Below, piece by piece: positions 2,975 through 23,191 of a stretch of 24,982 bases of DNA. A program made the translations under genes and the position numbers. The stretch is from a virus (lineage: Duplodnaviria > Heunggongvirae > Uroviricota > Caudoviricetes). The number at the start of each line of letters is the position of its first letter. Position 1 is the stretch's first letter. The notes under the pieces are model-generated. The model was not told the DNA's origin, ran no database searches, and saw only the letters and a program-made list of their open reading frames with translations. The stretch is from IMG/VR virus record IMGVR_UViG_3300029508_000048, positions 1 through 24,982 of that record. One strand, written 5' to 3'.

Positions 2975-3549
2975 ACCGGGCCTCCGGTTGTATCGCCGCC
3001 TTTCAGGACGCCAGTATGCTGATGCGCATCAACCACAATCCCGTTAGAACTCATCGCACCGCCGCCCTGGGTAACGCCACCATTGATCACCACTTCGCTG
3101 TTAATACGCGTGCGGTCAGCCTCCAGTACAAACTCACTGGTTTTCATGGTGATGTTGTCAGCGGCCTCAATGACCATTGATTTGATGCCCCTGACATACC
3201 AGCGCCCGGTGGCGGGTTCGTATTCAAACCAGCCACCGTCAGGATGTTCTATCACGCAGGCGTCCGCCGACGTCGACGGTGGCGCGAACTGATTCGAATA
3301 GATGGCGGGTAACGCAAAGGCGGTTTCCAGATTGCCGCCCAGACTCAGCAGCACCACCTGCTCACCTTCCGATGGTCGCCACCATGTGCGGGCATTACCC
3401 GCGCGCAGCGTCAGCCAGTTAATCCAGTTGGTTTCAAGGTCGCCCGTTTTCACCCGACAAAGCCAGTTTTCCCGGTCCACTTCGGTGACTACACCTATGC
3501 GGATCAGATTGGTGATAAGGCGCATGATTTCTGTGAGTTGTGAGTTCAT
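2971..3549 (-). CDS. V: Baseplate spike / tail protein V (P2 gpV-like)
   Basis: 192-aa minus ORF; N-terminus MNSQLTEIMRLITNLIRIGVV resembles the remembered P2 gpV N-terminus. First gene of the V-W-J-I-H operon. Confidence 0.85.
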   Translation of the reverse strand: MNSQLTEIMRLITNLIRIGVVTEVDRENWLCRVKTGDLETNWINWLTLRAGNARTWWRPSEGEQVVLLSLGGNLETAFALPAIYSNQFAPPSTSADACVIEHPDGGWFEYEPATGRWYVRGIKSMVIEAADNITMKTSEFVLEADRTRINSEVVINGGVTQGGGAMSSNGIVVDAHQHTGVLKGGDTTGGPV

Positions 3550-3630: not shown

Positions 3631-4500
3631 ATGAATAAATTCCAAATTAGTCCAAATTTAAAACCTGAAACAAAACTGTGGCGCTATATGTCTCTTGATA
3701 AATTCATCGATATATTATCCAGAGAAGAGCTATATTTTTCTCCTCTTAGTTCTTACAGCAATAGCGATCCATATGAGGGGTTATTACCTAAGGTTGCCTT
3801 AAATGCGTGGGCAAGCATCGTCAAAAGTAAGTTTAATGATATACAATCATATTTCAATGATACCGTAGAGCGTATCAGGGAAAACGAACTATTAGGCAGA
3901 ATCTCTAATGAAAAAGCCGAAACAGAAATCACCAAGTTGCAAACAATGATGGATACACAATTACCAAAAATAGAATCTATCTATTTTAAGATTTTAAACT
4001 CCGTCACAGTGAATTGTTGGCATCAAAATGAACATGAGTCAGAAGGAATGTGGCGTTTGTATTCAGATGCTAACAAAGGAATAGCAATTCAAACATCAAT
4101 ATCACGCTTGATAGATTCACTTCAATCTGAAGAGATTATCTCTATTAGTGAAGTAAAATACATTGATTATTTCGATGAAAAACTAACATCTGAAGATTGC
4201 GTCGTGAACGGAAGAATGGTTCCTTTTTTAAAACGAAAAGCTTTTTCACATGAAAATGAAGTACGTTTATCCATAACACCAAAAATTATTAATAGCGACA
4301 TCGAAAACTATACTCCCAAGGGGATAAGAATAAAAACAGATCCTGTAAAGCTAATCGAAAAAATATACATTTCTCCATATGCTTCACAACCTTACCCCAG
4401 TGCTGTAGCAGCAATATTAGAAAAATTCAATATTGATAATAACAAACTTGTTATCTCCAACTTGCTTACGATTGATCATAATTTATTGAGATTGTTTTGA
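3631..4500 (+). CDS. Hypothetical protein, AT-rich moron in reverse orientation inside the late tail cluster (position of P2 orf30); possible abortive-infection or defence protein
   Basis: 289-aa ORF with AT-rich codon usage unlike the flanking late genes, opposite strand, own promoter. N-terminal motif LWRYMSLDKFIDILSREELYFSP...SDPYEG. No family assigned. Confidence 0.7.
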   Translation: MNKFQISPNLKPETKLWRYMSLDKFIDILSREELYFSPLSSYSNSDPYEGLLPKVALNAWASIVKSKFNDIQSYFNDTVERIRENELLGRISNEKAETEITKLQTMMDTQLPKIESIYFKILNSVTVNCWHQNEHESEGMWRLYSDANKGIAIQTSISRLIDSLQSEEIISISEVKYIDYFDEKLTSEDCVVNGRMVPFLKRKAFSHENEVRLSITPKIINSDIENYTPKGIRIKTDPVKLIEKIYISPYASQPYPSAVAAILEKFNIDNNKLVISNLLTIDHNLLRLF

Positions 4501-5632: not shown

Positions 5633-5903
5633 GTTTCAGTTCCTCGATCCGGCGTTGTCGTTGTCTCAGCTGTGCGCTGGTCTGTTCTGCTTCGGCATAG
5701 AGCCGCGCCTGCTCCCGGTTATTGGTTTCAGTCAGAATGGACAGGCTGATAAGCTGGCTGTTGCTCTTTGCCAGTGCCTGGCTTTTGCTCTGCAGCTCGT
5801 TTGCCTGCGTGCTGATGGTCTGGCTGGCATCAGCCAGCCGCCACGTCTGCCAGCCCAGCGCCGCCAGTAATAACGCCAGCACAACCAGCAGCAACCGGTT
5901 CAT
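5475..5903 (-). CDS. lysB: LysB-like i-spanin (Rz-type)
   Basis: 142-aa ORF with N-terminal TM segment LLLVVLALLLAALGW followed by a coiled-coil, charged periplasmic region; located after lysA. Confidence 0.75.
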   Translation of the reverse strand: MNRLLLVVLALLLAALGWQTWRLADASQTISTQANELQSKSQALAKSNSQLISLSILTETNNREQARLYAEAEQTSAQLRQRQRRIEELKRENEDLRHWADTPLPADIIRLRERPALTGGAAYRQWLSASDAVSAGAGSTAH

Positions 5904-12225: not shown

Positions 12226-13256
12226 TGGGAAAGAGTAAGAAAAACCGCGCAGCGGCGATGAATCAGATCCAGCATAAAAACCAGACTTCAGCCGAAGCAT
12301 TCAGCTTCGGCGATCCCGTTCCGGTTCTGGACCGCCGTGAACTGCTGGACTATGTGGAATGCGTACAGACAGATCGCTGGTATGAGCCGCCAGTGAGTTT
12401 TGACGGACTGGCACGAACATTCCGCGCAGCCGTACACCACAGTTCACCGATTGCAGTGAAATGCAACATTCTGACCAGCACCTACATCCCTCACCCGCTG
12501 CTCAGCCAGCAGGCTTTTTCACGTTTTGTGCAGGACTATCTGGTATTTGGTAACGCCTACCTGGAGAAACGCACGAACCGGTTCGGTGAAGTTATCGCCC
12601 TTGAGCCTGCTCTGGCAAAATACACCCGACGCGGGTTAGACCTGGATACCTACTGGTTTGTGCAATACGGTATGATCACCCAGCCATATCAGTTCACGAA
12701 AGGCAGCATCTTTCATCTGATGGAACCGGACATCAACCAGGAAATCTACGGCCTGCCCGGTTATCTTTCTGCTATTCCATCCGCCCTGCTCAACGAGTCT
12801 GCCACGCTGTTCCGCCGCAAGTATTACATTAACGGCAGTCATGCAGGCTTCATCATGTATATGACCGACGCCGCGCAGAACCAGGAGGATGTAAACAACC
12901 TCCGCAACGCGATGAAAAGTGCCAAAGGTCCTGGTAACTTCCGTAACCTATTTATGTACTCGCCAAACGGCAAAAAGGACGGGCTTCAGATCATCCCGTT
13001 GTCAGAAGTCGCGGCGAAGGATGAGTTTTTGAATATCAAGAACGTCAGCCGTGATGACATGATGGCGGCGCACCGTGTACCGCCACAAATGATGGGTATT
13101 ATGCCGAATAATGTTGGGGGGTTTGGGGATGTGGAGAAGGCAAGTAATGTATTTGTTCGTAACGAACTTATCCCCTTACAAAAACGTATAGAACAATTAA
13201 ATCAATGGATAGGAAACACAATTATTAATTTTTTACCATATTCTCTCCAAAGTTAA
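12222..13256 (+). CDS. Q: Portal protein Q
   Basis: 344-aa ORF translationally coupled to P; last about 55 codons switch to AT-rich usage. Confidence 0.9.
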   Translation: MMGKSKKNRAAAMNQIQHKNQTSAEAFSFGDPVPVLDRRELLDYVECVQTDRWYEPPVSFDGLARTFRAAVHHSSPIAVKCNILTSTYIPHPLLSQQAFSRFVQDYLVFGNAYLEKRTNRFGEVIALEPALAKYTRRGLDLDTYWFVQYGMITQPYQFTKGSIFHLMEPDINQEIYGLPGYLSAIPSALLNESATLFRRKYYINGSHAGFIMYMTDAAQNQEDVNNLRNAMKSAKGPGNFRNLFMYSPNGKKDGLQIIPLSEVAAKDEFLNIKNVSRDDMMAAHRVPPQMMGIMPNNVGGFGDVEKASNVFVRNELIPLQKRIEQLNQWIGNTIINFLPYSLQS

Positions 13257-13268
13257 AAAATAGCATAT

Positions 13269-13291
13269 GGGTGCATAATGTTTATGCACCC
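13269..13291. terminator. Hairpin between the convergent genes Q and the ThsB-like gene (putative bidirectional terminator)
   Basis: Perfect 9-bp inverted repeat GGGTGCATA/TATGCACCC with 5-nt loop, followed by TCTTATT on the plus strand. Confidence 0.5.
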
Positions 13292-13296
13292 TCTTA

Positions 13297-13914
13297 TTAC
13301 CAGTTAAAAATTGATGAGCTGCGAATTGCAGGAACATCCGATGGATTTCGTTTAGCAGCTGGTTCCATCAACTTACGCTTGTTAAATGCCTGATCAATAT
13401 AATACTCAGGATTTTTAATAAAGACAGAGTATTTTACCAATGCACAATATACGTCAGAGTCATTATAATGGGGAACTGTTTTTTCATAAACATGATTCTT
13501 TCTAACCAGATAAGGCAAATAATAATCATATCCCCAACCTGGCGTTCTTAGACTTATAGAACATCCGCATGATGGATCTGCACATACTGCAGGAGTAAAC
13601 ACACTATCGTAAATTTCATCTCTGATAACACCAATTAGACCATTATAGTTTTCTCCCCAGAGTGATGCTTGAATTTCAGAGTTTACAAATGGACGATTTT
13701 TGGTTTCCGTTCCAATAAGAACGACAGTAACCGTTGAGTCTTTTAAAAAATCCTCACGAATAGTCCTCATTATTGTTTCATCAGTGTTAGTTGTACTAAT
13801 GTCACCATCACTTACCGACTTATCAATAAACGATTCTCCTCCGAATAAATCAATAATCTCATCTTTGAGATCTTGTTCGTTAGCATGATGATAACTAAGA
13901 AACGTCTTATGCAT
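13297..13914 (-). CDS. TIR-like protein, ThsB-like (DUF1863-type TIR-like domain), candidate NAD-consuming sensor of a defence cassette
   Basis: 205-aa AT-rich ORF. N-terminal KTFLSYHHANEQD, then TVTVVLIGTETKNRPFVNSEIQAS with a Glu near residue 80, resembling remembered ThsB/TIR motifs (F-S-Y-H...D strand, VLIG..T, catalytic E). Start ATG overlaps the upstream stop (TAATG); GGAG RBS. Confidence 0.6.
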   Translation of the reverse strand: MHKTFLSYHHANEQDLKDEIIDLFGGESFIDKSVSDGDISTTNTDETIMRTIREDFLKDSTVTVVLIGTETKNRPFVNSEIQASLWGENYNGLIGVIRDEIYDSVFTPAVCADPSCGCSISLRTPGWGYDYYLPYLVRKNHVYEKTVPHYNDSDVYCALVKYSVFIKNPEYYIDQAFNKRKLMEPAAKRNPSDVPAIRSSSIFNW

Positions 13915-14645
13915 TATTCACTCCATTTATCAACATTTATATCAAACTCTTTGACTACCTTATCATTGAAGAAATCGTTTACTTCTTTAAAACCTTCCAA
14001 TACTTGACTAAAATGATAATAATGCTTTTGTATAGTACTTATAGGGGTTAAATGATACGGCAATGATATAAATTCGCCGTTAGGGTCTCTATCCTTTGTG
14101 GTCACTTTATCATTATCTGAAACATATTTATGCCATCTCCGATAATTATTTTGATGCTTTGTTAAAAAAGAGTTTAACGTTTTCAAAATTTCATTTGAAA
14201 GTAAATACAGTTTTTTATCTCTTTTTTTCTTCACATCTAGTAATTTCATTTCATCTCTAATGAATTTATAGCACTCATAATATGAGTTTAAAACTTCTTC
14301 AATTGAGTCATAATTCGGATCAAATTTAAATAATGTTCGCTTCGTATCCAGATAATTTTTTACGCTCTTTTTAAAAAGAAGATCAGACTTATTTAGTAAA
14401 ATATTAATACCACCAAAACTAAGTTGCTCTAATCTCAATGAATATCTTTGATGAAATGCACCGACCAGCAAGATATAAGCAACTAAAAATAGTATTAATA
14501 CTGATAGAAAAGCACGAATTATGTTTACATTTGACATGAAATTAACTATAAACCACCATTTTTCAAACGGTGAAAACGGAATGCACCCCATGATAATAAG
14601 TAGAAGAACAAAGATACAACCCCATAAAACCCACAATCTGTACAT
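13914..14645 (-). CDS. Membrane protein with two N-terminal TM helices and an unassigned soluble domain of about 180 aa; candidate effector partner of the TIR-like protein
   Basis: Track ORF starts at TTG 14690. Preferred start is ATG 14645 (MYRLWVLWGCIFVLLLIIMGCI...) with AGGA 8 nt upstream. Two hydrophobic helices then a K/N/Y-rich domain. Very AT-rich. Translationally coupled to the downstream TIR-like gene. Confidence 0.65.
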   Translation of the reverse strand: MYRLWVLWGCIFVLLLIIMGCIPFSPFEKWWFIVNFMSNVNIIRAFLSVLILFLVAYILLVGAFHQRYSLRLEQLSFGGINILLNKSDLLFKKSVKNYLDTKRTLFKFDPNYDSIEEVLNSYYECYKFIRDEMKLLDVKKKRDKKLYLLSNEILKTLNSFLTKHQNNYRRWHKYVSDNDKVTTKDRDPNGEFISLPYHLTPISTIQKHYYHFSQVLEGFKEVNDFFNDKVVKEFDINVDKWSE

Positions 14646-14667
14646 AAGAAAGATCCTTTTTCTTTTT

Positions 14668-14695
14668 ATAATACTGCAACTACACCTCAAGTCAA
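14668..14695 (-). promoter_or_regulatory. Sigma70-like promoter of the membrane-protein/TIR-like operon
   Basis: Minus strand TTGACT (plus 14690-14695), 16-bp spacer, TATTAT (plus 14668-14673), about 20 bp upstream of ATG 14645. Confidence 0.45.
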
Positions 14696-14700
14696 AACCC

Positions 14701-14760
14701 TCTTCTGATATTACCCTCTACTACAGTAACCCATCACATGACCTCCGACTTATCAGAAGA
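14701..14760. repeat. Perfect 10-bp inverted repeat pair TCTTCTGATA ... TATCAGAAGA separated by 40 bp
   Basis: Read directly at 14701-14710 and 14751-14760, just upstream of the cassette promoter and next to the cos-like motif. Confidence 0.7.
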
Positions 14761-14794
14761 CTAGCCAAACTTTCTCAATCAAATCAGGTTGCGC

Positions 14795-14820
14795 GCGCTC
14801 GTATCCCCGCCACGCCTGCC
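14795..14820. other. cos-like sequence (candidate cohesive-end site)
   Basis: Minus strand reads GGCGTGGCGGGGATACGAGC. The first 13 nt match the P2/186-type 19-nt cohesive end as I remember it (GGCG(A/T)GGCGGGGAAAGCA-), 12-13 of 13. Confidence 0.35.
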
Positions 14821-14860
14821 CGCTTTATGTAGTGGTTTTCATGCACCTGCATGATCTACG

Positions 14861-14885
14861 CAAAAGCCCGCCAGAACTGGCGGGC
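14861..14885 (-). terminator. Rho-independent terminator downstream of the lipoprotein gene
   Basis: GC-rich inverted repeat GCCCGCCAG/CTGGCGGGC followed on the minus strand by TTTTG. Confidence 0.5.
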
Positions 14886-14989
14886 CTTAACACAAAAGAT
14901 CCTCAAACGATCATGCGATCTCATGCAGCATAGACATGCGCGTTTATGCAGAATGTGCAAAATCGTAACATACTCAGTAAGCGTGAAAC

Positions 14990-15667
14990 CTAGAACGTGA
15001 CAGCCTTGTCAAAGCCAGAAATAATTGTATAAGAAATAGACGAGTTATCAGCCTTGTTCACTTTGAACTTGGCACCTTTGTAAGCGATAACATCACTTCC
15101 CTTAGAATCTACAGAAAAATCTGTTGTAAATGCTGCACGAGCCATATCGTTTGCAAATTCACGATAGGTGAACTTCATTACACCGCCTGCATTTCCATTA
15201 TATTCGATAGTCTTAACCAATGAATTACTCACTCGACACAGCCCATCAGGAACACGTTTGATAGAAATTTCTGATGCAGTATAAGAAGTGCCATTTGGCG
15301 GTGATATCTCATTTTTTGCAGCATCGTAACTAACATAATCAACATAGTTACCGATTTGCCCATAGAGATTTTTTAACGCAACAGCTTGAGGGTTATGATA
15401 ATTGCGGTAAATTCCATTCCCCTCACTGCAATATGTACCAGCAGCGATAGAAGACAATGCACCATTAGCCGCACCAAGTTCTAGTACGTCCGTTTTAAAT
15501 CCAGTAGCAGATGTGATAATGGGATCGCCCATGTAGGCGGTAGCACTTTGCCCAATAGCTGGCTTCACCACTTCAATAGCAGTGATATTTCGGTTAGAAG
15601 CATGTGGCACGCAACCAGTTAGGATTACAGCAAGAGATATTGGTAACGCTACATTATTAATTTTCAT
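14990..15667 (-). CDS. Lipoprotein of unknown function (cargo gene in the cos-proximal right-arm region; candidate surface/exclusion factor)
   Basis: Start at ATG 15667 gives MKINNVALPISLAVILTGC, a signal peptide with lipobox L-T-G-C. Mature part is Gly/Ser/Asn/Tyr-rich. GC lower than the backbone by eye. Confidence 0.7.
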   Translation of the reverse strand: MKINNVALPISLAVILTGCVPHASNRNITAIEVVKPAIGQSATAYMGDPIITSATGFKTDVLELGAANGALSSIAAGTYCSEGNGIYRNYHNPQAVALKNLYGQIGNYVDYVSYDAAKNEISPPNGTSYTASEISIKRVPDGLCRVSNSLVKTIEYNGNAGGVMKFTYREFANDMARAAFTTDFSVDSKGSDVIAYKGAKFKVNKADNSSISYTIISGFDKAVTF

Positions 15668-15690
15668 TTTTAGCCTATTATTCTTTTCTT

Positions 15691-15726
15691 GACAAAAAAC
15701 AAGGCGATATCTGATTGACATCGCCT
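15691..15726 (-). terminator. Putative terminator after the DinI-like gene
   Basis: Minus strand AGGCGAT-(11 nt)-ATCGCCT hairpin followed by TGTTTTTTG. Confidence 0.4.
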
Positions 15727-15780
15727 CTCACTCATATGTAACCCTTTTTGATTAGTAAAAACAAGCGTCTATTGACAAAA

Positions 15781-16014
15781 TCAATGCAGCCAGCTGTCGT
15801 CTTCCCACACCTTCTGCAAAATTTTCATCACTTGTTTTCTTTCTTCGTCCAGTTGCAGTCCGGTCAGTTCCACACCGTTAGAGCTACCTTTACGGATACG
15901 GATTACCGTTTTGGGATACAGGGGGCGCAGATTGCGGTAAAGCTCGGATTCAAGGGCGTCCAGGGTAGACTGGCTAATCTTCTGCTCTTTATCGATCATT
16001 ATTTCAATGCGCAT
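15781..16014 (-). CDS. dinI: DinI-like protein (DinI family; C-terminal-domain equivalent of a 186 Tum-type antirepressor)
   Basis: Start ATG 16014 with GAGGTG upstream. MRIEIMIDKEQ...LDALESELYRNLRPLYPKTVIRIRKGSSNGVELTG...ILQKVWEDDSWL matches the remembered DinI pattern (MRIEVTIAK...VSVRY...ILQETWE). Confidence 0.8.
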   Translation of the reverse strand: MRIEIMIDKEQKISQSTLDALESELYRNLRPLYPKTVIRIRKGSSNGVELTGLQLDEERKQVMKILQKVWEDDSWLH

Positions 16015-16024
16015 AAAAGTCACC

Positions 16025-16213
16025 TCAGCTGATGACATCCATTGAGCGGTTGTATTCGTGGCTTCTGATTTTTGCCATGAGTTCATCTGTCAGTTCAGAA
16101 ACCCACTGCAGAGCCAGCCCCTTCTCTTCATCACTACACTCACTAGCCGCTACAAGCTTAAGAAAAAAATCAATGCGCTGGAGCTTCAAAGACTCCAAAA
16201 AATAGTCCTGCAT
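16025..16213 (-). CDS. Small acidic protein, first gene of the LexA-controlled operon (possible N-terminal part of a Tum-like antirepressor)
   Basis: 62-aa ORF with ATG at 16213 and a strong AGGAGG RBS; ends 11 nt before the DinI-like start in another frame. Confidence 0.55.
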   Translation of the reverse strand: MQDYFLESLKLQRIDFFLKLVAASECSDEEKGLALQWVSELTDELMAKIRSHEYNRSMDVIS

Positions 16214-16253
16214 CTTTCCTCCTATGACACCAAAGCAATACTGTATACATAAC

Positions 16254-16273
16254 CACTGTTTATATTTACAGTA
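16254..16273. promoter_or_regulatory. LexA (SOS) box overlapping the promoter of the 62-aa/DinI-like operon
   Basis: CACTGTTTATATTTACAGTA fits CTGT-N8-ACAG (about 16 of 20 to TACTGTATATATATACAGTA). Overlaps a -10 TATACT (plus 16270-16275) with -35 TTTACA (plus 16291-16296). Confidence 0.6.
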
Positions 16274-16365
16274 TATAATAATCTTACTGATGTAAAACGT
16301 TTTTTTACGCTCATCAGCCTGATATGCCTGGTATTATTAAGAGCACGAATTGTTAACCCGCGTAA

Positions 16366-16722
16366 TTAATACAGGTTTCGCCACTTATCATCTTCCTGCA
16401 AACGCTGGTTCCGATAGAAGATACGCAGGCCTGCTCCTGACGGAATACTGCCGCCGCGAAGCAGTAAATCGACCTCTTTCTCGCTGCCATCAAATCCCCT
16501 TGACTTCAGTTCATACACGAGCTGCAGTCGCTGATGGTCTGTAATTCGCTGTTTGTAGTCTTTACGACGTTTCGGTTTAACCAGGCGTAACCTTGCTACC
16601 AGTTCCCGGCACTCTTTTTTGCTCAGACTGTGCAGGTATTCGTGCAACTCTTTGTCATCCATGCGGGTGATATCCGTTCTGGTATCTCCATCAGCTGATT
16701 TGTTTTTCTCCTGTTGGTTCAA
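16366..16722 (-). CDS. Hypothetical basic protein downstream of A
   Basis: 118-aa ORF (TTG at 16722, or ATG at 16662); Lys/Arg-rich, plausible composition; function unknown. Confidence 0.45.
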
Positions 16723-16730
16723 ATTTTCAG

Positions 16731-16815
16731 CAAGGGGACAGTTATTGCCACGAGTCCAAGGGGACAGTTATTGCCACGAGTCCAAGGGGACAGTTATTGC
16801 CACGAGTCCAAGGGG
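16731..16815. repeat. Tandem direct repeat, 3 copies of 26 bp plus a partial fourth, at the 3' end of gene A
   Basis: CAAGGGGACAGTTATTGCCACGAGTC at 16731-16756, 16757-16782, 16783-16808, then CAAGGGG at 16809-16815. Confidence 0.9.
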
Positions 16816-18859
16816 CGCAAGCGCCCTGGTCGGCTGCCGCCTCCTGAACGTCAACGGCCTTACGGGCCTTTTTCCACTTCATCGCGTGCGTGCAAATCTT
16901 GCCCTCTATAATCGGGGACCAGATGCCATAGATACGGATACCGTGATCGCCGTAAGCGCTCGGTTCGTCGTTAAGCTCATAAGCCGTGCGGACAAGGTGA
17001 TGTTTGCGGGGAACCAGTACACCGCCCTGCTTCATGATGTAAGTGGCAAAGCAACCCGCATCTGCAGCTGCCAGTACCGCATCCAGACGCGGATTATCCA
17101 GTACCGGTGCACCCGCTTTGCGTTCGCCCTGCACTCTCGCCGCCTGACCAGCCAGCAAGCGCAGCTCACGGTATGCCTGACGCCCCGGGATACCAAAGAA
17201 ACGGAATTGCTGGACACGGTGCAGTGACGCCCAGGCACAGACATGCTCGGCGCTGTCACGCAATGATCTGCCGGTTTCTTTGCTGATTTCTTTAGCCAGC
17301 CCGCGCCCGTCGATGTTCTTACTGATGTATTTGGCGATGTAGCTGGTCGGTGTACCCTTGCGCGGGTTGATTAGCTCGGACTTGAAGCGCGGGCCGGTAT
17401 TGGTGCCCAGTTCCTCGCGGTCTTCACGGATGGCGAACTTACGCAGCAGCGCGGTGATGGAACGACGGTCTTTTTTGCGCATAAAGCACAGAAGATGCCA
17501 GTGCACGGTGCCGTCATGGTGCGGCTCTGCAACGCGGACGCCGTACCAGCGCAATCCGGCCTTGTGCATGGCCTTGCGGAAAGCGGCGAACGTATCAACC
17601 AGATAATCACTGCTCTGCCGGACAGTGGCACTGGTCCACTTCGGATTAGGTCTGCCGTTGTTGAGGGTTGCGTGGAAGCGTGACGGGCAGGTGATGGTAT
17701 AGAACACCGCGCAGTCTCCGCGCATTTCCGCTATCAGTTCCAGCCCCTTAACACAGGTCATCATTTCATTACGGCGGTGTGCCGGGTTACTGTTGCTGGC
17801 GTTCACTACATCTTCCATGTCCAGCGTGTCGCCGTCTTCATTGACCAGCTCATGCGAGCGGAAGAACTCCAACGATTTGCGACGCTGCTCGCGTTTGTGT
17901 ATCACGGCTTCATAACTGACATACGGGGACGCTTTCTTGTTGACCAGACAGACGGCGCGCATCTGCTCCTCCCGCCACTCGCAGCGCATCTGCCACAATT
18001 TGCGATACCACCAGTCCGCGCACAGCATGCGCGCCAGCGACGGTGGGATCAGTTCATAAGGCACTGGCTTGCGACGGCGCTTTTTGCGGCGCAACTTCTC
18101 AAAGGCAGGCGGAATGACCTCAAGGCGCATGGCTTCTGCAGCAACCCTTTCCCACGCCTGGCGGATTTCTTCTGGTTTAACATCGTCACTGACAAACAGA
18201 TCACCGCAAGCCGCATCAAGACACATGCTCATATGTGCCGCAACCAGCGTGGAAAGGCGCTTGACCTGATCCTGATTCATTTCAGGAAGTACCAGCAATC
18301 CCTCCAGCCCGTCCTGGCTCGCCATGAATCGGAAAGATGCAGACACCTGGCTGTCACGCACTCGCTCCAGCCGCTCAAAACAAGGCCTGATTGTTTCGCG
18401 CAGATAACGGGAATAAGCTTTAGCCCTGCCTAGGCTATTGAAGTATTTAATCCGCTCTAACAGAGGCTTGCTGATATGGGCAGGCATGGCGCTTACATCG
18501 GCAATAATCACCAAATCGGGATTAACGCGCTGCTGCTCGCGGGCCATTCTGGCATGGCTAATCAGCCGATCCTGCTCTATTTCACGCTGGACAGGATCGC
18601 GGGATTCATTGAAGAAATAACGTTCCCACACCTCATCACTCAGCGCCTCACGGCGCAGATGCTCCTGCTCGTTATCTGCAGCGTACAGAGTGATGAGGTT
18701 TGAAAGCGCAGACTCAGGCGCAAATTCCGCCGGGTCCAAATACGGGTTAACCGCTTTTTTTGGGGTATTCCATGGAAAGGCCACGGCGGTCACAATCGGA
18801 CCGCCTTTATCTTTTAGTAGCTCAGACATCACTGGAAGACTCCAAAGCTCACAAAGCAC
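16742..18859 (-). CDS. A: Replication initiation protein A (rolling-circle endonuclease, P2/186 gpA-like)
   Basis: 705-aa ORF containing the YIAKYISK active-site tyrosine motif typical of gpA/phiX174-A initiators. True start may be a few codons in (MSELLKDKG). Confidence 0.9.
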
Positions 18860-19076
18860 CTCGGGTGTAGTGCATCCCTTTCAGCTCTGCTATTTCCTTA
18901 CAGGTGACGCAGAGATCACAGCCCGGCACTGCAGCACGGCGCTGTTCCGGGATGACGATTCCGCAACACTCACACTCCAGAGAAGAAGCCCCAGTCTTTC
19001 GGCTGCGAGCTGTTTGGATATGGCGCTGACGTTCTTCTTCAACGCGCTGTTGCACGAGGTCCATTGAATCAGCCAT
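18849..19076 (-). CDS. DksA/TraR-family C4 zinc-finger protein
   Basis: 75-aa ORF with CECCG...C..C cysteine pairs; conserved small gene upstream of A in P2-like phages. Confidence 0.7.
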
Positions 19077-21934: not shown

Positions 21935-23191
21935 ATGGATGAATGTATAGTCGAGATGTTATTAATAGTGAATAAAGATACTTCCTTTGGACGCTCTCCG
22001 TCAGCCTATAAAAAAATAATTGAGGCCAGTGAGGAAGTCATATTTTCACCAAAAGAATTAAAATTCAAAGAACAGTCATTTAAATATGATATATCAGAAT
22101 ATGGAAGCAATAAAGAAACTATCTCTGTAAAATTAACACTAAACGACGTTAGTGAAGATAATTTAATCACTTTCTCAAGATTAACCAGACTCTTCAAAAA
22201 AATATCTAGCGAAAGTAATTTAGGTAGCACTCAAATTATTTGGGATGATATAAGCAAATATTACTCAATTCAGGCTTATCCATTAATCCATGAAATTGAA
22301 AACTTAATGAGAAAATTAATAACAAAATTCATGATACATAACGTTGGATTGTCTTGGACAAAAGATTCAGTGCCGAAGGAATTTTCAGAAGCATTGAAAA
22401 AATCCGAAAAAAACACAGAATATAATGAACATAATTTAATGTATCAAGTTGACTTTATTGAACTTTCTGACTTTATATTCAAATCTTACCGAGAGATTGA
22501 AATAACAGATTTGATCCGAAAATTAACCCCGCTTGAATTTAAAGACATTAATGCTGATATATTCTCAGAATTGAAAAAAATCGTTCCCAGAACAAACTGG
22601 GAAAAATTCTTTGAGTCAAACATCGAAGCAAATGCTGACACTATAATAAAAAATTGGAGTATTTTATATCGACTCAGATGCAAAGTTGCTCATAATAGAG
22701 ATTTTACTAAACAAGATCTTGATGAAGTAATTCGCCTTACAAATACACTGAGTCCAATACTAAAAAAAGCAATTGAAAAAACCGAGACTCTGACTATTGA
22801 TCCGAAGGAAAAAGAAGAATTAACATCCCAGTTTGAGAATGAGTTTTCTAACAATACTAAAAGTGATGAAGAATTATTCAAAGACAGAGTGCTTGAATTA
22901 TATCTACAAATAAGACATTTATATCAACTTACACATTCAAACAGTGAAAATATTAATAGCTATTACAAAGTAATACAAACAACATTCCAAAATGTTTTGC
23001 ATGACGAAAAGTTCAATGCCGAAGACGTAATGAATTTAATTAATATCTCAACTAATGATGATGTTCTGAGAAAATGTGATAATTTCGAGATACATGATTT
23101 AATGAATATTTGCCATTCTATTAAAGAACTTGTTAATTTTAAAATATCAAGTTTTGAAGCTGGGTCAAATGAAGCAGTTAAAAATGAATGA
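21935..23191 (+). CDS. Hypothetical 418-aa protein inside the lysogenic cI-int operon; candidate abortive-infection/defence protein with an Rx4-6H (HEPN-like) motif
   Basis: Very AT-rich ORF with GAGGAG RBS; motif ILYRLRCKVAHNRDF near the middle; no TM segments; followed by a terminator. Confidence 0.7.
   Translation: MDECIVEMLLIVNKDTSFGRSPSAYKKIIEASEEVIFSPKELKFKEQSFKYDISEYGSNKETISVKLTLNDVSEDNLITFSRLTRLFKKISSESNLGSTQIIWDDISKYYSIQAYPLIHEIENLMRKLITKFMIHNVGLSWTKDSVPKEFSEALKKSEKNTEYNEHNLMYQVDFIELSDFIFKSYREIEITDLIRKLTPLEFKDINADIFSELKKIVPRTNWEKFFESNIEANADTIIKNWSILYRLRCKVAHNRDFTKQDLDEVIRLTNTLSPILKKAIEKTETLTIDPKEKEELTSQFENEFSNNTKSDEELFKDRVLELYLQIRHLYQLTHSNSENINSYYKVIQTTFQNVLHDEKFNAEDVMNLINISTNDDVLRKCDNFEIHDLMNICHSIKELVNFKISSFEAGSNEAVKNE

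Follow-up and report, generated by a model that had tools for sequence, protein, structure and literature searches.

The gene A protein of phage phiX174 is the prototype of the two-tyrosine rolling-circle initiators, and its origin reads CAACTTG^ATATTAATAAC..., with the caret at the nick. Termination in phiX174 needs less sequence than initiation, and this is the source of the idea, taken up below, that an initiator may rejoin DNA at a partial site. Initiation and termination between tandem origins are known from f1, from pT181 and from the 'replicational release' of geminiviruses, and Michel and Ehrlich reportedly described in 1986 illegitimate recombination at the nick sites of the M13 gene II protein and of pC194 Rep. 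We know of no report of a tandem duplication at the phiX174 origin. For rolling-circle plasmids of staphylococci, a review mentions only a general recombinogenic role of single-stranded DNA intermediates (PMC5703833), and a literature search gave no usable account of origin duplications in the P2 family or of the mapping of the P2 nick site. The P2 record (NC_001895) carries a 'nick site at ori' at 29892, within gene A at codon ~620 of 761, and the record of phage 186 (NC_001317) a rep_origin at 28576, at codon ~611 of 694, which is qualified as 'located by similarity with P2; consistent with electron microscopy mapping'. Both annotated sites lie in the sequence CTCG^GAGTyCTGTCAATAACTGT.

The DNA analyzed here, called the window in the following, is a whole contig of 24,982 bp and represents a 186/Fels-2-like prophage of the P2 family (Peduoviridae), with regulatory and integration genes (CI, CII, Fil, integrase) as well as structural and packaging genes (portal, terminase, scaffold, capsid). 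The portal gene and the A-DinI region are separated by a low-GC two-gene cargo (13297-14690, minus strand; GC 0.32 versus 0.50 for the window) that encodes a 205-aa ThsB-like TIR protein (PF08937, E = 1e-14; PADLOC ThsB, E = 6.5e-12), the gene of which is overlapped by a 258-aa ORF without family match. No ThsA was seen. The same ThsB-like gene is present in L013, a human-gut metagenome contig compared with the window below. In addition, a low-GC (0.29) ORF of 418 aa between the CI repressor and the integrase (21935-23191, plus strand) has a sub-threshold match to Swt1-like HEPN proteins, and a low-GC (0.33) gene for a 289-aa DUF2971 protein is located among the late genes (3631-4500, plus strand).

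The minus-strand ORF 16742-18859 matches Phage_GPA (PF05840, E=2.8e-131 in Pfam) and runs into a tandem array, for which Tandem Repeats Finder (TRF) reports at 16731-16815 a period of 26, 3.3 copies, 100% matches and a score of 170, with the consensus CAAGGGGACAGTTATTGCCACGAGTC. The array, 3.27 perfect copies, is the sole strong one that TRF finds in the window. Exact units start at 16731, 16757 and 16783, where 100 shuffles give an expectation of 0, and no further 26-bp unit was found elsewhere in the window, even with 3 mismatches allowed. The first-pass annotation of this DNA had described three perfect tandem copies and a partial fourth, read by the A ORF in three successive frames; TRF and exact matching confirm the copies, and translation confirms the frames. 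TRF also lists four weak short repeats (22300-22329, 18919-18944, 5876-5896 and 3532-3546; scores 30-39), and the 12-bp AT-rich one among them sits within the HEPN-like cargo ORF. The elements of the array and of gene A are the following, the nick positions being predicted from homology:

16813..16826, minus strand: GC hairpin GGGCGC-tt-GCGCCC, ending 4 nt 5' of nick site 1; not duplicated.
16731..16815, minus strand: tandem array, reading CCCCTTG and then 3 x GACTCGTGGCAATAACTGTCCCCTTG on the strand that codes for A.
16783..16808, minus strand: unit 1, the ancestral copy, with predicted nick site 1 at 16809/16808, CCCCTTG^GACTCG.
16757..16782, minus strand: unit 2, an extra copy, with predicted nick-site core 2 at 16783/16782 and no hairpin; the out-of-frame reading of A starts here.
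16731..16756, minus strand: unit 3, an extra copy, with predicted nick-site core 3 at 16757/16756; it holds the premature TAA stop of A (16742-16744).
16742..18829, minus strand: truncated gene A ORF, 695 aa from ATG 18829 (705 aa from GTG 18859).
16742..16782, minus strand: frameshifted tail of 13 novel codons, units 2 and 3 read out of frame.
16366..16731, minus strand: orphaned C-terminal 121 codons of A plus stop, the frame still open.

Written in the phase of the nick, the A coding strand reads CCCCTTG^(GACTCGTGGCAATAACTGTCCCCTTG)x3, so that every unit spans from a predicted nick to a second CCCCTTG. The 3' end of unit 3, CCCCTTG^CTG (16731/16730), is the look-alike heptamer found in all single-copy relatives, and alignments of the window with relatives, among them the 2-unit strains S88 and N53, show CCCCTTG plus a single unit at the position of the array in Fels-2, Cartapus, 813R9 and MLG42. 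Of the three candidate nick sites that the prophage would thereby present, the first alone, that of unit 1, is preceded by the GC hairpin.

Why should the unit be regarded as part of the replication origin? In a codon-by-codon alignment the window sequence CCCCTTG^GACTCGTGGCAATAACTGT matches up with the nick sites of P2 and 186; counted over these codon-aligned sequences, 22 of 30 positions are identical between the window and P2. At the protein level, residues 615-626 of P2 A (GIAAPRSPVNNC) align with residues 675-686 of Fels-2 A. The nick position in the window is assigned by homology, the annotations of P2 and 186 fixing it to about 1 nt, and the nicked strand is taken to be that of the features in the two records. 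With this assignment the 26-bp unit is predicted to start at the gpA nick, within about 1 nt. The placement of the origin inside gene A, which the first-pass annotation had proposed by reference to P2 and 186, holds, as the unit aligns to their annotated sites at 29892 and 28576. The core G^GAnTnnTGnCAATAACTGT forms invariant columns in an alignment of the window, Fels-2, MLG42, S88, N53, P2 and 186, and GAnTnnTGnCAATAACTGT is also found in EtG, K139, phiO18P, PK23, Acica and P88_4B11, that is in phages of Erwinia, Vibrio, Aeromonas, Burkholderia and Acidovorax, high-GC genomes included. In the high-GC phages PK23 (L127, Burkholderia) and Acica (L128, Acidovorax) the Asn-Asn-Cys codons of the origin are still AAT AAC TGT, indicating that the motif is under a constraint at the DNA level that goes beyond the protein sequence alone. 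Moreover, a GC hairpin of 5-8 bp is located 4-8 nt 5' of the nick in the lineage of the window and in P2, 186, EtG, K139, PK23, Acica and P88_4B11, a criterion that is reached by 8% of shuffled 32-mers. The stem sequences vary between the subfamilies and the pairing is kept by compensatory changes; the origin hairpins of F108 and phiO18P are weak, with 3-bp stems. The origin of the P2 family can thus be placed as a hairpin, a nick and a 19-nt core, kept from enterobacterial to Burkholderia phages.

The array covers codons ~672-695 of A. For the A protein the ATG at 18829 is the likely start, preferred because the exact 695-aa product is the record entry for this contig, and an exact-sequence look-up among about 15 billion proteins finds this truncated protein in this contig only. 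The catalytic motifs are intact and lie upstream of the lesion (HWH at 17495-17503; YIAKYISK at 17318-17341, which in the alignment to P2 A matches Y450/Y454). In tblastn searches, homology to A of P2, 186, K139, phiO18P and Burkholderia phages stops at residue ~690 of 705, and Fels-2 A reads different residues where the window has its frameshifted tail. The homologues in Fels-2, 813R9, Cartapus and MLG42 are single coding sequences of 802-809 aa that run through the region of a separate ORF in the window (16366-16722, 118 aa, in the mechanical ORF list), at the head of which no ATG is found. The site lies 121-142 codons ahead of the A stop in P2 and in the Fels-2 type. Furthermore, the family profile phrog_91 ('nicking at origin of replication') covers both ORFs of the window, the truncated A with its positions 28-645 and the 118-aa ORF with its positions 654-759. 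When the array is collapsed to one unit in silico, an uninterrupted ORF of 803 aa results, from ATG 18829 to the stop at 16366. The extra 52 bp thus shift the frame, A stops at 16742 and 121 codons are lost. That the array, which the first-pass annotation described as forming the 3' end of A, is the natural end of the gene is therefore rejected: it is the end of a truncated ORF, and A of the relatives continues for 121 codons more. The proposal of a recent expansion that changed the C-terminus of A was essentially correct, and the expansion moreover frameshifts A and removes these codons.

Across 57 distinct sequences from relatives, the 121-codon C-terminal region has a pN/pS of 0.18; by this measure the lost C-terminus evolves under purifying selection in the relatives, and the orphaned frame is open in every multi-copy allele. 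Searches of NCBIfam, Pfam and PDB sequences gave no clue to the role of the lost domain, and the C-terminal regions of the A proteins of P2, 186 and the Fels-2 type are not homologous to one another. A split A is also seen in four Salmonella loci (L014-L017, including serovar Typhi records), where a 709-aa A is followed by a similar 98-aa C-terminal ORF; since these loci have a single origin unit, the truncation of A in them must come from a different mutation, located downstream of the nick.

About 99% of the relatives carry one unit. Among 5,426 complete E. coli genomes the unit is present in 2,469, with two units in 8 records and three units in 0, which corresponds to 8 variants in 2,847 E. 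coli places or about 0.3%. Of IMG/VR, 80 relatives were collected on the basis of protein similarity, and 78 of them have one unit; IMG/VR as a whole contains five 2-unit loci and the metagenome collection three. The 72 deposited phage records with the unit all contain it once, and the 185,579 species-representative genomes do not contain the exact 2-unit junction. PGAP annotates A as a frameshifted pseudogene in each of the five 2-unit loci fetched; such 'replication endonuclease' pseudogenes with two units occur in the E. coli strains S88, N53, M8, EC261 and O9:H10. As several 2-unit loci are nearer to single-copy loci than to each other, the sequences suggest more than one origin of the 2-unit alleles, or recombination. 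In total, about 16 loci with +26 and one lineage with +52 were collected.

The +52 lineage consists of the window and L013, an independently assembled contig from ENA with an identical 3-unit array; beyond these two, no 3-unit allele was found in the 5,426 E. coli genomes, in IMG/VR or in the other collections scanned. An in-frame 4-unit allele was found neither in the E. coli genomes and species representatives nor in IMG/VR and the metagenome collection. L013 is 100% identical to the window over 12366-17167, and all 88 differences fall in 17168-18800, the 5' 1.6 kb of A, amounting to about 5% divergence in the 5' part of the gene. Upstream of A, L013 encodes at 1-1857 a Dam-type methylase and a 294-aa ORF (versus 18805-19076 in the window); the methylase is also present in Fels-2 and most relatives, and in the window A directly follows a gene for a DksA-like zinc-finger protein. 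A mosaic boundary coincides with the nick site (~16783, 16731): the window A is nearest to that of Yersinia phage MLG42 (L012; 97.6% aa identity) on the upstream side and Fels-2-like (L001; 97% nt identity) on the downstream side, MLG42 diverging right after the unit. In the family as a whole, the homology of A goes no further than the nick. The expansion of the array is rare and recent. The expectation of the first-pass annotation that selection acts at the DNA level is borne out for the unit, which is part of an origin that aligns to the nick sites of P2 and 186, and fails for its repetition, as about 99% of the relatives are single-copy.

Other length variants occur at the same point:

+6, GACTCG doubled: 14 loci (10 IMG/VR, 3 metagenome contigs, Serratia sp. 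L9) with several different flanks; loci and not events are counted, and the doubling may be one old event spread by descent or recombination.
+12, GACTCG tripled: one locus.
+21, in frame: E. coli RM10809-3 (L098), A annotated as intact.
+6, GAGTTC doubled at CTCG^G: a 186-like phage (L179).

The doubled GACTCG stays in frame and adds Thr-Arg to the PWTRGNNC motif. The in-frame variants at the nick are those of loci L102, L104-L113 (L107 among them), L114, L115, L119, L120, L179 and L098. The +21 of L098 and the +6 of the 186-like phage have no flanking microhomology, so that their phase can be set in one way only and puts the left edge at the predicted G^G; the left edge of the GACTCG doubling lies within 1 nt of the predicted nick, and +26 and +52 are compatible with a start at the nick. 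At the second endpoint, CCCCTTG recurs 26 nt downstream for +26 and +52, and no such match exists for +6 and +21. A scan that was blind to the start, anchored on the hairpin and a downstream 12-mer, returned 9 insertions, all of them duplications starting at the nick. Moreover, when 81 sequences were aligned over 2,150 nt, the only internal indels in A were three at the nick, and the ~1,960 nt between reference positions ~135 and 2099 contained no others. None of the 81 sequences has a duplication at any of the 12 other direct-repeat pairs of at least 7 bp within 40 nt in A, which include a 10-bp and a 9-bp pair 27 nt apart. A family-wide scan for CAATAACTGT occurring twice within 40 nt gave mostly chance matches besides the known +26 loci. 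Its only possibly relevant extra match is a 33-bp tandem duplication at about 675-717 of L138 (IMGVR_UViG_2531839591_000017), which has an origin core of the 186/K139 type (AGTTCTGTCAATAACTGTACGGAGGGTG...); the left edge of this duplication is 1-2 nt off the expected nick, and it is flanked by the inverted repeat CCGTCTG / CAGACGG.

Taken together, we consider it highly probable that the window carries a duplication of the origin nick site that truncates A. The reading we prefer, with a probability of about 0.6, is that the tandem triplication (+52 bp) at the origin nick is a mutation at a hotspot and not a functional array. Whether the initiator itself drove the duplication is in our view evenly poised. 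Briefly, gpA as a two-tyrosine HUH enzyme would nick at CCCCTTG^GACTCG and stay on the 5' end, and the 3'-OH would be extended for a short way, displacing the gpA-bound 5' end. Rejoining of the bound 5' end onto the extended 3' end by gpA would then create a tandem duplication that begins exactly at the nick. Rejoining would be favored 26 nt downstream, where the new 3' end would again be CCCCTTG and resemble the natural substrate. The DNA gained by such nicking, extension and rejoining would be the first n nucleotides after the nick, which would fit a shared left edge and a variable right edge (6, 21, 26). From two units on, further gain or loss would be easy, by nicking and rejoining or by slippage. 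Duplications of 6-52 bp anchored at the predicted nick in two subfamilies suggest that a rolling-circle initiator can scar its own origin.

The main rival assumes the same anatomy and attributes the expansion purely to slipped-strand mispairing, in the course of ordinary replication, between two CCCCTTG heptamers with 19 nt between them; the initiator would have had no share in it, and the match with the nick position would be incidental. The single-copy relatives indeed offer a perfect 7-bp direct repeat on either side of a 19-nt spacer, a classic substrate for short duplications, and +26 is seen only where the downstream heptamer is CCCCTTG, with 0 cases among more than 30 loci with CCCCCTG. 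Slippage would account for the 26-bp event equally well without gpA, and on the 33-bp repeat it suffices for the step from two to three units. However, the +21 has its left edge at the predicted nick despite the lack of microhomology, and the +6 duplications of two subfamilies (GACTCG, GAGTTC) start at the same point with 0-1 nt of microhomology, so that slippage fits these events poorly; nor did the 12 other repeat pairs in A give rise to any duplication in the 81 sequences. We regard slippage alone as possible but somewhat doubtful.

The readings that ascribe a function to the copy number fare less well. A selected array, iteron-like or an origin with several nick sites, would imply that A is naturally shorter and that the 118-aa ORF is a separate gene. 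It is in keeping with such a role that the unit is strongly conserved as DNA and part of the origin, that the 3-unit allele occurs in two mosaic backgrounds and that the PHROGs family phrog_23581, composed of stand-alone 118-aa proteins, matches the orphan ORF. However, nearly all relatives are single-copy and have an A protein with a longer, conserved C-terminus, and among the about 15 billion proteins the exact truncated form occurs in this contig only. The 2-unit alleles are annotated as frameshifted pseudogenes; the orphan ORF does not open with an ATG, and the family profile joins it to A. The conserved hairpin is missing from copies 2 and 3, and the array is not unusually structured: the single-stranded fold of the 151-nt region has a z of 0.45 versus shuffles, with the upstream hairpin as its only standout, and a structured DNA element made by the array is rejected. 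The comparison of A 3' ends and copy numbers across related prophages thus speaks against the iterons or structured site that the first-pass annotation had suggested, and an iteron array is rejected as well, the repetition not being conserved among relatives; a selected array in any form is very unlikely. An artefact of assembling a short repeat seems less credible still. It is true that the window is a metagenome-derived contig (JGI/IMG), but the whole array of 85 bp is shorter than typical reads, the identical 3-unit array recurs in the independently assembled L013, and eight complete E. coli genomes contain 2-unit alleles. An adaptive or reversible off-switch, in which the copy number toggles A (one unit on, two or three off, four on) and domesticates a cargo-bearing prophage, could draw on the facts that 26 is not a multiple of 3, that alleles with one, two and three units are seen, that the orphaned frame is intact in all multi-copy alleles and that low-GC cargo including the ThsB-like TIR protein is on board. 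Against it, the variants are rare, the in-frame 4-unit allele was not found in any collection scanned and nothing sets the pattern apart from ordinary prophage decay, making such a switch distinctly unlikely. A phase-variable tract is not convincing on similar grounds: the frame does depend on the copy number, but allele frequencies of about 0.3% do not support switching. The bolder variant that the initiator writes the duplications as a reversible toggle of the replication competence of the prophage, which would make the nick site in A a self-inflicted hotspot of mutation, is improbable, though less so than a switch under adaptive control; each event would switch A off, as 26 is not a multiple of three, and a rolling-circle round between the cores of two units could delete units and switch A back on.

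Gene A of this contig should be annotated as a frameshifted pseudogene and the 118-aa ORF as its orphaned C-terminus. Judged from its sequence, the prophage is probably replication-defective for want of a full-length gpA and hence probably incapable of lytic replication, even if the structural genes and the defense cargo look intact. Moreover, rolling-circle rounds that start and end at different ones of the tandem nick-site cores should alter the copy number, so that such arrays should be unstable in a replicating phage and last mainly in silent prophages.

How does this locus compare with the known systems? The origin of P2 and 186 likewise lies inside A and shares with the window the core CAATAACTGT, the upstream GC hairpin and the HUH and two-tyrosine motifs of the initiator. 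The difference is that the window carries three copies of the 26 nt that follow the nick, by which A is frameshifted; in P2 and 186, unlike in the window, the heptamer before the nick does not recur downstream. The prophages of E. coli S88, N53, M8, EC261 and O9:H10 have the same unit, the same place and the same disruption, but with +26 where the window and L013 have +52. The initiator of phiX174 would by analogy belong to the same enzyme class, and its origin appears similar near the nick, with ..CTTG^ and AATAAC downstream; phiX174 is, however, a single-stranded DNA phage, unlike the double-stranded DNA temperate phage of the window. With recombination at the nick sites of rolling-circle replicons the locus has in common that one endpoint lies at the predicted nick of the initiator and that the second endpoint of the 26-bp event falls on a sequence similar to the nick site's 5' half; and where such replicons carry tandem nick sites, the intervening unit is expected to be gained or lost during rounds of replication. 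The rolling-circle cases concern plasmids and single-stranded DNA phages and are for the most part deletions or engineered duplications, whereas the family of the window presents natural tandem duplications of 6-52 bp within the initiator's own gene, in a double-stranded DNA temperate phage.
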